From: a virus
Lineage: Duplodnaviria; Caudoviricetes
DNA: 64,000 bases
Virus record (IMG/VR): IMGVR_UViG_3300028603_000018
Coordinates: 64,001 to 128,000 of that record
Reading direction: 5' to 3' (one strand)
Of the stretch, positions 4,734-39,998 are shown piece by piece; position 1 is the first letter of the stretch, and each line of letters opens with the position of its first letter. The position numbers and the translations under genes were made by a program. Under the pieces are notes generated by a model. It worked only from the letters and a program-made list of their open reading frames with translations, had not been told where the DNA came from and made no database searches.

Positions 4734-5339
4734 ATGTTAATTATTCCTCAACCAGATGATCGTACTGCTTGTATTATTGGTATCGATCCAGGAACACGTT
4801 TTATGGGTTTAGGCGTAATATTCTTTAATGTTCTTAATTTAGAGATTATCCAATCAGGTAGTACGCTATTGAGAGGAGATGCTCTAATTGAGAATGAAGA
4901 TCATATCGCTTTTCACGGTAGTCGATTTGCTAGGTTACATGGTATTGAGAATAGATTACATAGCTTCTTCACAAGTCTTAATCCACTCTGTGTAGCTGCT
5001 GAGAGTAATTTCATGAATACTAACAGACCAACAGCTTATGGAGCTTTAGTAGAATCTGTTGCTTGTATTAGAAGCGCTTTATTTAGACACCGAGCATTAA
5101 TGGAGCTAGATTTAATAGAACCTTCTCCAGTTAAAAATGCCGTAGGTTGTAAAGGTAACGCCGGTAAAGAAGACGTCAATGCTGGAGTTGAGCGACTAAA
5201 TCCTATTTTAAAATACGTAGGTATAAGTGCAATTAAAGATTTAACAGAGCATGAGACTGATGGACTAGCTATTGCTTATTGGCGCTATCTATTATTAGTT
5301 AATCACGCTCAAGCACTTAACCAATTTAAAGGCAGTTAA
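4734..5339 (+). CDS. ruvC: RuvC-like Holliday junction resolvase
   Basis: IIGIDPGT (catalytic D), VAAES (E), VKNAVG..GNAGKE and HETDGLAIA motifs of the RuvC family. Confidence 0.85.
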   Translation: MLIIPQPDDRTACIIGIDPGTRFMGLGVIFFNVLNLEIIQSGSTLLRGDALIENEDHIAFHGSRFARLHGIENRLHSFFTSLNPLCVAAESNFMNTNRPTAYGALVESVACIRSALFRHRALMELDLIEPSPVKNAVGCKGNAGKEDVNAGVERLNPILKYVGISAIKDLTEHETDGLAIAYWRYLLLVNHAQALNQFKGS

Positions 5340-5341
5340 TT

Positions 5342-5875
5342 ATGTTCTTAAGTGGTTTGAAAATTCTTTCTATGTTAAGTAGTTTGAAAAGCTTAACAAG
5401 TAAGATTAAAATACCGAACAAGATACTTTTTTGGCTGGTATTAGTTATTCTCGTTATCGGTTCTCTTTTTGTTAGTCATTCTTACTATTACCAGAAAGGT
5501 AAACAACATCAAAAAGAAAAGATCGAAGAACAAATTAAAAAAGAAAATGAGATAACAAAAGAAGTTATTGAAACTATTAGTAAGCAAGCAGAGATTAGTG
5601 AGGAGCGTAGTGAGAAAGAACTCACTGATACTGTTGAAGAGATAGAAGAAGTTATTAAAGAAGAACTGCGATTACACCAACAAAAACAAGAAGAAATTAA
5701 AAAAGAGACAAAGATAAAAAAAGCTATTCAATCTAATAAAGAAATACCACTTCTTATAGAAGAAGTTAAAGAAAAGGATTTTCTTGATGATGAACAAGCT
5801 AAGATTTTAATCAAACGCGAGTGGATGATCTATTGCATAGATAAAAACACTTCTCTTTGTGAGAATTTTAAATGA
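5342..5875 (+). CDS. Putative i-spanin (Rz-like)
   Basis: Single N-terminal TM helix (ILFWLVLVILVIGSLFV), long E/K-rich coiled coil and C-terminal Cys pair; ATGA overlap with the downstream lipoprotein gene. Confidence 0.6.
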   Translation: MFLSGLKILSMLSSLKSLTSKIKIPNKILFWLVLVILVIGSLFVSHSYYYQKGKQHQKEKIEEQIKKENEITKEVIETISKQAEISEERSEKELTDTVEEIEEVIKEELRLHQQKQEEIKKETKIKKAIQSNKEIPLLIEEVKEKDFLDDEQAKILIKREWMIYCIDKNTSLCENFK

Positions 5876-32966: not shown

Positions 32967-35228
32967 ATGTCTGTGTCTAATCTAGACAAAGCATTTAATA
33001 TTAGTATTCTCTATCTAACACCATTGAATCTAAGAGGCTTAGGATTAATCGATACACTGGATACTTACGATGTAAATGGTGAGTTCAGTGATCGTGGTCT
33101 TTACTCTATTGATTACTTTGGTCCAGTAGGAGATCTACGACGTTCTCGTCGACTTGCATATATTGATATCAAGATGGAGGTTATTCATCCTCTTATCTAT
33201 AAATCCTTAGTAAAACTAAAAGGCTTTTACGAAGATATTATCCTAGGTAAGAAATATGCTATTTGGAATAAACTCACTAAAGACTTCGAACCAGCAGATG
33301 CATTAACTGGTCAAACTGGTTTTAATTTCTTTCTTAATCACTGGATGGATATTGATCTCGTTAGAAATAAGAGTACAGCTAGAAACGAGAGAGTTACTTT
33401 TATTGAGAATAATAAAAGTAAAGCACTTACTAATAAAATCCTAGTTATTCCAGCAGGTATTAGGGACATGACAGTAGGTGCAGATGGTAGACCAGTTAGT
33501 GATGAGATCAATAATATCTACCGTCGATTAATTGGGGTATCAAACACTATTACTGAAGCAGCTATTGAACACAACCCAGAACTCTTTGATAATTCTCGAT
33601 TACGATTACAATTAGTCTTTAATGAGTTATATGAGTATATTACCCAATTACTTAAAGGAAAAAAGAAACTCATTACAGGGAAGCTAACCTCACGTAGAAT
33701 CCATAATGGGACTTCAAACGTTATTAGTGCTTATATCCCTACAGTAAAGCGCTTAGGTGAGCCAGGATCTATCTCAGTTAATAATACCATTGTAGGATTA
33801 CAACAATTCTTAGTCTCTATTGGTCAAACAGCTAAGTATTATATTAAGAATGGTCCATTAAAAGAAGTATTCATCTCTCCTGACCTACCAGCTCGACTCA
33901 TTAACAAAAAGACACTAGAGCAAGAAGAAGTCGATATCTCTATTGAAGCTTATGATTACTGGATGTCAAATGAAGGTCTTGATAGAGTACTCAGTGAATT
34001 TGCTAATGGTAATATCAGACACCAGCCTGTTGAGATTGAAGATCATTATGTCGCTTTGATTTATAAAGGACCTGATAATACTTTTAAAATCTTCTACGAT
34101 ATTAGAGAATTACCTGCTAACTTCTCTAAGAAGTATGTTAGTCCTATTACGCTATTAGAACTCCTATACCTCTCTGTTTATGAGACTTCAGCACAATACC
34201 CAGCCTTCACTACTCGCTATCCCGTATCAGGAGATGGCTCAATCTATCCTTCTTTCTCTTATGTTAAAACAACAGTGAAGTCTGAGAAGAGATATCCTCT
34301 AAATGAAGTATGGCAAAAAGACGATACTCTACCTATTGCTTTTGAGTTCCCTTTACTTAATTCGAGTTTCTACGATACTCTGACTCCACACACTTCGAGG
34401 CTTGCTGGTCTCGGCGCTGATTATGATGGTGATAACGCCTTAGCCCTTATTTATAAGGGATAATTCAAGAAAAGTGTATAACACCTTATCCTAGTAGTAT
34501 GAAAGTCGTTAAAAACTTTTATAACTTATATAGATAATGTCGAAGCTTTTACTAATAAAAATACTCAAAGTAATTTTATTAACCATATACATTTTTCATT
34601 ATTATTCCTTATTTATATTACGTCACCTATTAGTAGAAATACTAATACAATAAACCTCTTTAATTGACGGGAAAAGACTGTTAAAGTCTATCTACCAAGC
34701 TATGCATTGGAAACAACATAGTGGCTGAACTAATCACTCAGGTAAGGTAATAAAGATAGAACTGGTTTAATCCGCAGCGAAGCTCCTAGAGATACTTTCT
34801 ATAAGTATACGGAGTGCGTTCAACGACTAATGAAAGGCGTGTGTTAATTATAACACTAAACCGAGTAAAGTAGCGCCTAGTGGTAGGGTGTGTAGATTGA
34901 GAATGGGTCTACACAGTAAAACCCTTTAAAGCGAAATGGGAGGCACCTGACTGCTATTGTTAGAATAGTAAAAGGTGAAGATATAGTCTGAGCGTCTAGG
35001 GAAAGCCTAGAGTAGTAGTTATCTTAACTACGGGTATAGATTAACGAGCTATACTGAACATAACTGAGAATGTCATTTAATGCTTTATATACCGATGAAG
35101 CAAAAGAAGAAATACGGAAATTCTTAACTGAACCTAGAGCATATTTAAATACTAATGGTGAATTAAGAATGAGTGCTTCTTTCCCCACTATTGATTTAGT
35201 ACTCTATAACCTAACTTCTAGGAAGTAG
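32967..35228 (+). CDS. rpoC: Virion RNAP beta' subunit (phiKZ gp180-like), spliced: join(32967..34433,35067..35228), 542 aa
   Basis: GLYSIDYFG, TRYP and LGADYDGD catalytic motif. Exon 2 (RMSFNALYTDEAKEEIRKFL...LTSRK*) restores ADYDGD-RM, homologous to NADFDGD-QM. Confidence 0.88.
34434..35066 (+). mobile_element. Group I intron (633 nt, no intact homing endonuclease) in vRNAP beta'
   Basis: 5' exon ends in U (GGTGAT) and pairs with IGS GTCACC 34622-34627 (U.G wobble). P AATTGACGGGAAA 34662, Q AATCCGCAGC 34769, R GTTCAACGACTA 34818, S AAGATATAGTC 34978; terminal G at 35066. Confidence 0.9.
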
Positions 35229-38200: not shown

Positions 38201-39998
38201 ATCAATCCAGTAGAAGACGCTAAGCAAATTGATGCTTTGTCTTATACAGGTTCAGGTGGTCGTAGTAGTCGTTCTATGACTAAAGAGACGCGTCTTTATA
38301 CTGATAAGGATCAAGGTCTAGTTTCTGAATCTACGGTTGATTCTGCTAAAGTAGCTATTAATAACTACAGTTCAGCAAAGCCTAAGTTAACTAGTGTACG
38401 TGGTACTTATGAGCAATTCAATTTAGAAGAAGATGGTGTAGGTAGCTTAATTAGTACTGCTGCCTCATTATCTCCTTACGTGCTGTACGATGATTAACAA
38501 TTAAATAATATTTGTATATTGTTTAACTAGTCCACTTAGTTAGTAATAACTAATGTGAATGCTTCTTAATTGCTGGGAAAGGCTTAGAGCTAAAGTAACC
38601 ACTGCGAGACGAAAGTCAAAGCCAAGGTTTGAAAATACTTTAGATTGCTCAATCAGCAGCGGAGATTCTACGTCTTATTATTTATAGTAAGATATGAATA
38701 GCGTTCAACGATCAATCCCTTATCAGGATGTAGGTCACAAGTGTGATCCAAACAGAAGCCTTCCTAATCACTAGGAAGAAGATATGATCTAGACATCTAG
38801 GGAAAGCCTAGAGCTGCAAGTAAAGTTGCGGGTTAGTCCTAACGAGACTAATTGAATACAATCGGGAAAAAGGGTCTCCTTTATCGGGGTCCAGCACGGT
38901 CATGGAATTGCATGTACAGGGTATACTGCTCCTGTAGTTAGGACAGGTAAAGAAGCTAGCTTAGCTCAACAAACTAGTGAAGTGTTTGCTAAAGCTGCTG
39001 AACAAGACGGTGAAGTTATCTCTGTTAAACCAGAAGGTATTATTGTTCGCTACGCAGATGGTAGTGAAGAAGGCTATCCTTGTGGGAAAGTCTTTGGTAA
39101 TAGTGCTTCATTATCTTTTCCTTTTAACATTGTAAGTAATGTTAGTAAAGGAGAGGTATTTAAAGCAGGAGATATTCTCACGTATAATACGGAGTTCTTC
39201 ACTAAAGATACATTAGCTAGAAATACTGTTGTCTGGAAGAATGCTGTGCAAGTAAACGTAGCTTTAGTTGAAGTACCTTCTACTTATGAAGATGCTTCAG
39301 CCATTACTCAACGCTTAGCTAGTAAACTTACTTCTAAGATCTCAGAACCTATTAACATCACTGTTCGGTTTAACCAAGCTATTCATGACTTAGTTAAAGT
39401 AGGTGATAAAGTTAAAGCTGATGACCATCTTTGTGTTATTGAAGATGAAGTTACAGCAGGTAGTGATCTTTTCGATCAGGACTCCTTAGATAACTTACGC
39501 ATTCTGCGCTCTCAAACACCTCGTGCTAAAGTCGATGGTGTTGTAGATAAGATCGAGGTCTTCTATAATGGCGAGCTTGAGGAGATGTCAGAATCATTAG
39601 CTGAAGTAGCGATGGCTGCTGATAAACGTTTAGCTAAAGAGTTATCTTCAGTAGGTAAGAAGCCCATGACAGGTTCTACCTTAGGAGAGAGCTATCGTAT
39701 TGAGGGTAATGTTTTACAGTTAGATGAACTTGTTATTCGTGTTCATGTTACTGAAGACAAAGGGATGGGTAATGGTGATAAAGCCGTATTTGCTAACCAG
39801 TTAAAAACTATTATCTCTGAAGTATTACCTGATCCTGTTCAAACAGAATCTGGCGTAGAGGTAGATGCTTTATTTGGTATTAAGTCAGTCGGTAACCGTA
39901 TCGTTAACTCACCTTACGATATTGGTATTGATGCTAGACTCATGACTAAAGCAACTGAGCGAGCTATTGCTGCTTATACCACTCCTATTAAAGGTTGA
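35237..39998 (+). CDS. rpoB: Virion RNAP beta subunit (phiKZ gp178-like), spliced: join(35237..38494,38865..39998), 1463 aa
   Basis: DGTFRINGVKY, ESTVDSAKVA and GNGDKAVFANQLKT motifs. Splicing gives SPYVLYDD-GKRVSFIGVQ, homologous to RpoB PFLEHDDANRALMGANMQ. Confidence 0.88.
38495..38864 (+). mobile_element. Group I intron (370 nt, ORF-less) in vRNAP beta
   Basis: Exon ends in U (GATGAT). P AATTGCTGGGAAA 38568, Q AATCAGCAGC 38651, R GTTCAACGATCA 38703, S AAGATATGATC 38779, P3 GCTTCT/AGAAGC. Terminal G 38864 rejoins the reading frame. Confidence 0.9.

Follow-up and report, generated by a model that had tools for sequence, protein, structure and literature searches.

A predicted ORF-less group I intron behind the metal-binding motif of the virion RNA polymerase β′ gene in a phiKZ-like jumbo phage

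Does the open reading frame at 32967-34463 of this phage sequence encode a complete polymerase subunit, or is it the first part of a gene interrupted at its catalytic motif? Uncorrected, the ORF ends in ...LGADYDGD followed by nine codons and TAA, and a first-pass annotation had read it as the virion RNA polymerase (vRNAP) β′ gene, broken by a group I intron at 34434-35066. The window, i.e., the whole 64,000-nt stretch of DNA that was analyzed, comprises bases 64001-128000 of contig C90 (244,062 bp, 35.8% GC); coordinates are those of the window unless contig numbering is stated.

The β′ gene and its exon junctions

32967..34433, + strand: exon 1 of the vRNAP β′ gene (phiKZ gp180-like), 489 codons, ending GADYDGD; phrog_2986, E = 7.5e-168, positions 7-488 of 539
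34434..35066, + strand: predicted group I intron without an ORF, 633 nt; Rfam RF00028, 60.8 bits; excision restores the frame
35067..35228, + strand: exon 2, 53 codons plus stop (RMSFNALYTDE...); phrog_2986 positions 490-539 of 539

Comparison with other phages supports this gene as an orthologue of phiKZ gp180, the vRNAP β′ N-terminal subunit, because identity between the predicted protein and gp180 is 39.8% and both phages have the gene order gp181-gp180-gp178-gp177. A 2236-aa SLT-domain tail protein is encoded upstream on the opposite strand, and β′, β (phrog_3148), a small ORF, and a phrog_3841 gene follow, which is the order of phiKZ gp181-gp180-(gp179)-gp178-gp177 and of FLC9 gp42-gp38. 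By tblastn, exon 1 showed 45% identity to FLC9 gp41 and 40% to phiKZ gp180. Neither exon matched Pfam, and a single-sequence phmmer search of the PDB returned no match; annotation needed the family profile, which matched PDB entries of RNA polymerase β′ (E = 2e-15 for the AR9 non-virion enzyme, plus plastid and bacterial β′) with the motif aligned to NADFDGD. The assignment of the gene to the virion polymerase was thus upheld by the phrog_2986 match, the identity to gp180, and synteny, with packaging in this phage assumed by analogy; phiKZ gp180, a vRNAP subunit carrying DFDGD, is packaged at ~10 copies per virion (PMC10612078). The β′-like subunits of these phages end just past the double-psi barrel (review PMC7598289), and the 53 residues lost without splicing would therefore belong to the catalytic domain.

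The junction GADYDGD|RMSFNALY proposed in the first-pass annotation was reproduced by joining 34433 to 35067. Its further statements about the reading frame also proved accurate: the unspliced frame runs nine codons (NALALIYKG) past the motif to a TAA at 34461-63, and the exon missing from the ORF track, 35067-35228, encodes 53 aa plus a stop. The two exons cover phrog_2986 positions 7-488 and 490-539 of 539, and the unaligned first residue of exon 2 fills position 489. The spliced 542-aa protein is colinear and gap-free across the junction with the intronless homologues FLC9 gp41, P0003, and P0005; for FLC9 gp41, itself 542 aa, a single tblastn segment spans residues 5-540, and in cultured relatives the matches to exons 1 and 2 adjoin, in that order. 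The intron's final base, 35066, is G, as had been claimed, and no other G nearby would restore the frame. The predicted junction-spanning tryptic peptide is LAGLGADYDGDR, and a further predicted peptide is MSFNALYTDEAK. As sequence-based predictions, the group I identity, both splice junctions, the 53-aa exon absent from the ORF track, and the host gene are independently supported, with identity and junctions drawing on the covariance model, on protein colinearity with intronless homologues, and on a compensatory P1 change in the related locus L004 (Ga0182744_1001630).

One emphasis of the first-pass annotation was unwarranted, namely, that on DYDGD in place of the canonical DFDGD. Among 105 homologues having the motif, 94 carry DFDGD, 9 DYDGD, and 2 DHDGD; DYDGD is also present in 11 of 68 intronless IMG/VR loci. 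The solved AR9 non-virion RNA polymerase β′ (PDB 7S00/7S01 chain d) likewise has DYDGD rather than DFDGD at the metal-binding loop. We rejected DYDGD as a meaningful active-site change and regard it as a recurrent natural variant.

Ribozyme core and the oversized P1 loop

The Rfam check returned a match to RF00028 at 34605-35012 on the + strand (60.8 bits, E = 6e-13), above the gathering score of 50 bits and covering the whole model (positions 1-253). The anatomy below comes from a fold constrained by P1, P3, and P7, read alongside the Rfam alignment.

34428..34433, + strand: P1 5′ strand, GGUGAU; U34433 is the 5′ splice-site U; complementary to 34622-27
34434..34621, + strand: oversized P1 loop (L1), 188 nt, AT-rich and non-coding, a long imperfect hairpin (fold compared with shuffles)
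34622..34627, + strand: internal guide sequence GUCACC, the P1 3′ strand, directly 5′ of P2, as also in L004 and phiKZ
34628..34647, + strand: P2, 8-bp hairpin with a GAAA loop (constrained fold and Rfam alignment)
34655..34988, + strand: catalytic core P3-P8 (Rfam alignment, constrained fold, and compensatory changes)
34655-60 / 34938-43, + strand: P3
between 34662 and 34817, + strand: P4-P6
34662-73, + strand: P block, AAUUGACGGGAA
34769-78, + strand: Q block, AAUCCGCAGC
34818-29, + strand: R block, GUUCAACGACUA
34825-29 / 34984-88, + strand: P7
~34834-34930, + strand: two hairpins in P7.1/P7.2 fashion, between P7 and P3′
34944-48 / 34973-77, + strand: P8
34977-88, + strand: S block, GAAGAUAUAGUC
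34995-35011, + strand: P9 (Rfam alignment and constrained fold)
35015-31, + strand: P9.1
35033-55, + strand: P9.2, a hairpin conserved in the phiKZ, L004, and L005 introns
up to G35066 (segment 34995..35066), + strand: 3′ tail with terminal G, ACUGAACAUAAC(U)G

All four blocks of the P/Q/R/S core, which had been described as complete, were located within 34662-34988, and the 6-bp P1 with its U.G splice pair was found as claimed, GGUGAU (34428-33) pairing with GUCACC (34622-27) through U34433.G34622. In L004 the P1 at the same place reads GGAGAU/GUCUCC, a two-sided compensatory change. The ACUGAACAUAAC(U)G tail behind the P9.2 hairpin is conserved in the phiKZ, L004, and L005 introns, with a G at the junction each time. 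P10 pairing is weak by eye (~5 bp with an offset). In related introns at the GAD| site (phiKZ and L005) P1 is imperfect, so the rules for the guide sequence appear to be loose in this lineage.

Nine related introns, i.e., five in contig C90 together with those of phiKZ, L004, L005, and L008, show two-sided changes with pairing kept in P3, P4, and P7; this covariation was read from anchored motifs rather than from a full-length covariance model of the lineage (~350 positions). P7 occurs as GACUA/UAGUC, GAUCA/UGAUC, or GACCA/UGGUC and is fully paired in all nine, P3 is altered on both sides in phiKZ, L004, L008, and another C90 intron, and in P4 a G-C to U-A switch occurs together with Q.

By blastn, the core is similar to introns of SPO1-like Bacillus phages. 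The helix order P1-P2-P3-P4-P5-P6-P7-P7.1/7.2-P3′-P8-P7′-P9-P9.1-P9.2 resembles the layout of subgroup IA2 phage introns, which makes the intron a putative member of that subgroup. Introns of the IA2 type (T4 td, nrdB, and sunY; SPO1 DNA polymerase) likewise interrupt conserved motifs in genes for nucleic-acid enzymes, but the host gene differs. An intein was ruled out, as the insert has stops in all frames.

The distance between the 5′ splice site and the guide went unmentioned in the first-pass annotation: the guide sits 188 nt downstream, past a structured P1 loop. The minimum free energy of the loop hairpin is -39.5 kcal/mol, compared with -21.6 ± 3.3 kcal/mol for shuffled sequences (z = -5.5), and none of 200 shuffles was as stable. 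No + strand ORF of at least 40 aa was present inside 34464-35023, and therefore the intron has no intron-encoded homing endonuclease ORF. The loop itself (34434-34621) has stops in all six frames and is unique in the assembly. No credible translated similarity was obtained for it by tblastx, either against the whole assembly (E at least 3.3) or against the full set of retrieved loci, in which the HNH and LAGLIDADG genes of related introns were included (E at least 0.08). A decayed antisense GIY-YIG endonuclease relic in the loop was rejected as unsupported, all frames being closed and tblastx similarity being absent. In phiKZ, the HNH gene gp179 occupies the corresponding P1 loop, with its last codons running into the guide and P2, and in another C90 intron a 470-aa HNH gene ends where the ribozyme core begins; the P1 loop therefore appears to be the usual endonuclease slot of the lineage. 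In the intron at 34434-35066, an endonuclease gene would have been either lost from this slot or never gained. For an intron without an ORF, a P1 loop of 188 nt is unusually long, and its size could delay P1 formation.

Related introns and the insertion hotspot

According to later papers (PMC10914365, PMC11512511), a 2002 prediction (Mesyanzhinov et al.) placed group I introns with the endonucleases gp56, gp72, and gp179 in RNA polymerase subunit genes of phiKZ, including gp55 and gp180. We confirmed the gp179 intron: annotated gp180 stops at ...LGAD, a group I core scoring 92.2 bits follows gp179, and exon 2 starts FDGDTVSFNAVY. Like the intron described here, it interrupts the Mg-binding motif of the β′ orthologue, and the two ribozymes are homologous (blastn matches the 3′ part, and the P9.2 hairpin and ACUGAACAUAAC(U)G tail are common to both), each with the guide directly 5′ of P2 behind a large P1 loop. 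It differs in being inserted 12 nt (4 codons) upstream (GAD|FDGD versus GADYDGD|R), in carrying a 357-codon HNH gene in the P1 loop where the present intron has the 188-nt non-coding hairpin, and in its length of 1443 nt versus 633 nt.

The intron of L004 is closer in position. Its β′ protein is 69% identical to ours, and the intron (59.1 bits) lies at the identical codon boundary, TADHDGD|TMSF, with a homologous core that includes the P5 extension and with the compensatory P1. By contrast, its P1 loop is short (~34 nt), the intron is 1442 nt long, and a 257-aa ORF with two LAGLIDADG-like motifs (positions 7005-7778 of L004) lies in the 3′ peripheral region. Among these homologous ribozymes the endonucleases thus differ in both family and slot, LAGLIDADG-like and 3′ peripheral in L004 and HNH in the P1 loop in phiKZ.

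Introns are also known from the vRNAP β gene. That of 201phi2-1 is interrupted (PMC11512511), and in PhiPA3 the gp210 intron interrupts the β gene (gp211/209) behind a pair of conserved aspartates (Birkholz et al. 2024, PMC11620839); gp210 is an active HNH nicking endonuclease that acts in phage-phage competition (PMC11620839). The PhiPA3 intron and the one at 34434-35066 both lie in a vRNAP subunit gene of a phiKZ-like phage, right after conserved aspartates of the catalytic region, but the former is in β rather than β′ and has an endonuclease, of which the latter has none. The β gene of the present phage is itself interrupted at that position, and further group I matches lie elsewhere on the contig.

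38495-38864: second ORF-less group I intron, in the vRNAP β gene; Rfam, 65.6 bits
C90 168285-168610 and 168680-168999, + strand: group I matches in tandem after an RNA polymerase subunit ORF (phrog_2987); Rfam
C90 183032-183372 (+ strand) and 200577-200969 (- strand): two further Rfam group I matches

Joining 38494 to 38865 yields a 1463-aa β protein that is gap-free against FLC9 gp40 and phiKZ gp178, and the exons meet (..LYDD|GKRVSF) immediately behind the residue that aligns with phiKZ gp178 D1072, which is exactly the site of the PhiPA3 gp210 intron. The four further matches, including the tandem pair, are given in contig numbering and lie outside the window; one is in another RNA polymerase β gene (phrog_3295), where it is preceded by a 470-aa HNH ORF, and one interrupts the gene for DNA polymerase (phrog_3011) near position 490 of the 576 in the profile. 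The 244-kb contig thus holds at least six group I introns. Its assembly, G000, has a median contig GC content of 64.5% (109 contigs), and besides C90 it contains ~20 other contigs of 31-42% GC (e.g., C39, 145 kb), which may belong to the C90 phage or to another phage. The low-GC contig in a high-GC assembly reflects either a host together with its phage, as with Pseudomonas and phiKZ, or a mixed bin.

Interruption of the motif is recurrent among homologues of the β′ gene. Truncation inside the motif was seen in 22 of the best 120 homologues; ~15 of these end after GAD, the phiKZ site, and five end after the full DxDGD, namely, this phage, P0002 (the same as L004), P0049, P0056, and P0077, the introns of the last three being putative. 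Twelve of 80 IMG/VR loci were interrupted and 68 were not, and overall ~15-18% of homologues are interrupted within the motif. An Rfam scan covering 10 of the 12 interrupted loci found a group I core after exon 1 in nine; at L080, no group I core above the Rfam cut-off followed exon 1. Within 12 nt, the interruptions use four different sites, all preceded by a U: GAD|, GADF| (L030), GADFD| (L080), and GADxDGD| (this phage and L004). In two distant relatives, L065 and L078, a pair of tandem group I introns flanks an exon of only 6 nt, TTCGAT (encoding Phe-Asp; positions 5335-5340 and 5452-5457 of the respective IMG/VR contigs), and the β′ pieces read GAD + FD + GDTMS. As read from these loci, no fewer than four insertion points lie within a 12-nt stretch of the motif.

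A megablast search of the locus against the phage collection gave no DNA-level match, and an IMG/VR protein scan for close relatives recovered only one locus, at 43% identity. By protein, Burkholderia phage FLC9 and Ralstonia phage RSL2 (43-45%) come closest among cultured phages, followed by the phiKZ group (~40%). The three nearest relatives differ in occupancy, P0003 (67% identical) being intronless, L004 having an intron at the same site with a LAGLIDADG-type ORF, and L005 having one 12 nt upstream with no ORF; turnover therefore appears to be fast.

Predicted splicing and its consequences

In the mechanism that we propose, the last six exon bases of the pre-mRNA, GGUGAU, would pair with the guide GUCACC 188 nt downstream, the stable long hairpin filling the P1 loop bringing splice site and guide together. 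Free guanosine would attack after U34433, and the freed exon would then attack after the terminal G35066, joining the codon for D489 to that for R490. The ligated product would encode a subunit of 542 aa whose double-psi barrel is complete; from unspliced RNA, a 498-aa product without the conserved last 53 residues would be made. We infer that the ribozyme is catalytically active, while its identity, the junctions, the colinearity, the helix covariation, the orthology, and the synteny come directly from the comparisons. In a phiKZ long-read transcriptome, splicing of the predicted introns was undetected under the conditions used (PMC10914365), which leaves the requirement for a reconstituted motif as the main argument for activity in this lineage. 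It is reasonable to suppose, as the first-pass annotation did, that splicing would be required for infectious progeny: the 53 post-motif residues are conserved family-wide, and when phiKZ lacks the subunit neighboring gp180 in the vRNAP, virion production is blocked (PMC11620839).

Two other accounts of the locus were weighed. The ribozyme may have decayed and no longer splice, leaving a gene that is either dead or effectively divided into a 498-aa polypeptide and a 52-aa peptide translated separately from an ATG one codon into exon 2 (35070). The β and β′ genes of these phages are, after all, already naturally split (PMC7598289), the splicing of the phiKZ homologues went unseen in that one long-read data set, and the intron combines an oversized P1 loop with the lack of an endonuclease gene. 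Nevertheless, we consider decay very unlikely, as all core blocks fit the consensus, every core helix pairs, and P1 and the terminal G are intact. On inspection of the sequence, no convincing ribosome-binding site precedes the ATG at 35070, and other relatives have no ATG at the start of exon 2 (TVS in phiKZ, TAS in FLC9); moreover, the gene is essential for this phage type, and the catalytic barrel would be severed by a break right behind the Mg-binding loop.

A narrower alternative keeps the same junction but places the guide nearer, for example at AACACC (34480-85), so that most of the 188 nt would be P2-like peripheral structure and not a P1 loop. This element could pair with GGUG..U at five of six positions, and ORF-less P1 loops of very large size are uncommon. 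It would, however, introduce an A-A mismatch and put U-A in place of the near-universal U.G, whereas GUCACC forms a perfect pairing and abuts P2 on its 5′ side, exactly like the L004 and phiKZ guides, and the L004 guide covaries with the L004 exon; a nearer guide is thus extremely improbable. We therefore hold with high confidence that 34434-35066 is a self-splicing-type group I intron of phage-like architecture (P7.1/P7.2, P9.1/P9.2), without a homing-endonuclease gene, in the vRNAP β′ gene of a phiKZ-like jumbo phage, which is the best explanation of the whole and includes a presumed splicing activity.

An ORF-less intron at this site might also be useful and not merely tolerated. By occupying and breaking the conserved DxDGD coding sequence it would give immunity to homing endonucleases with which co-infecting relatives attack this hotspot, and the 188-nt L1 hairpin would be a functional element that adjusts the rate or timing of virion polymerase mRNA splicing in the phage nucleus, where translating ribosomes cannot be relied on. 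We regard this idea as speculative and rather unlikely to hold.

On sequence grounds, the intron is confirmed at 34434-35066 and the gene model needs correction; the intron is of a kind already known for phiKZ-like phages, its insertion after the third Asp codon and its large structured P1 loop are minor variations, and taken alone it opens no new question. For annotation, β′ would be 542 aa and not 498, and the neighboring β would be 1463 aa instead of being two ORFs; both genes are cut short by automatic gene calling, as happened with phiKZ gp180. For the biology of the family, the intron adds one data point to a known picture in which the codons of the RNA polymerase metal-binding loops of phiKZ-like phages are a hotspot for group I introns, where related ribozymes occupy several sites that lie a few bases from one another and where endonuclease genes come and go quickly.
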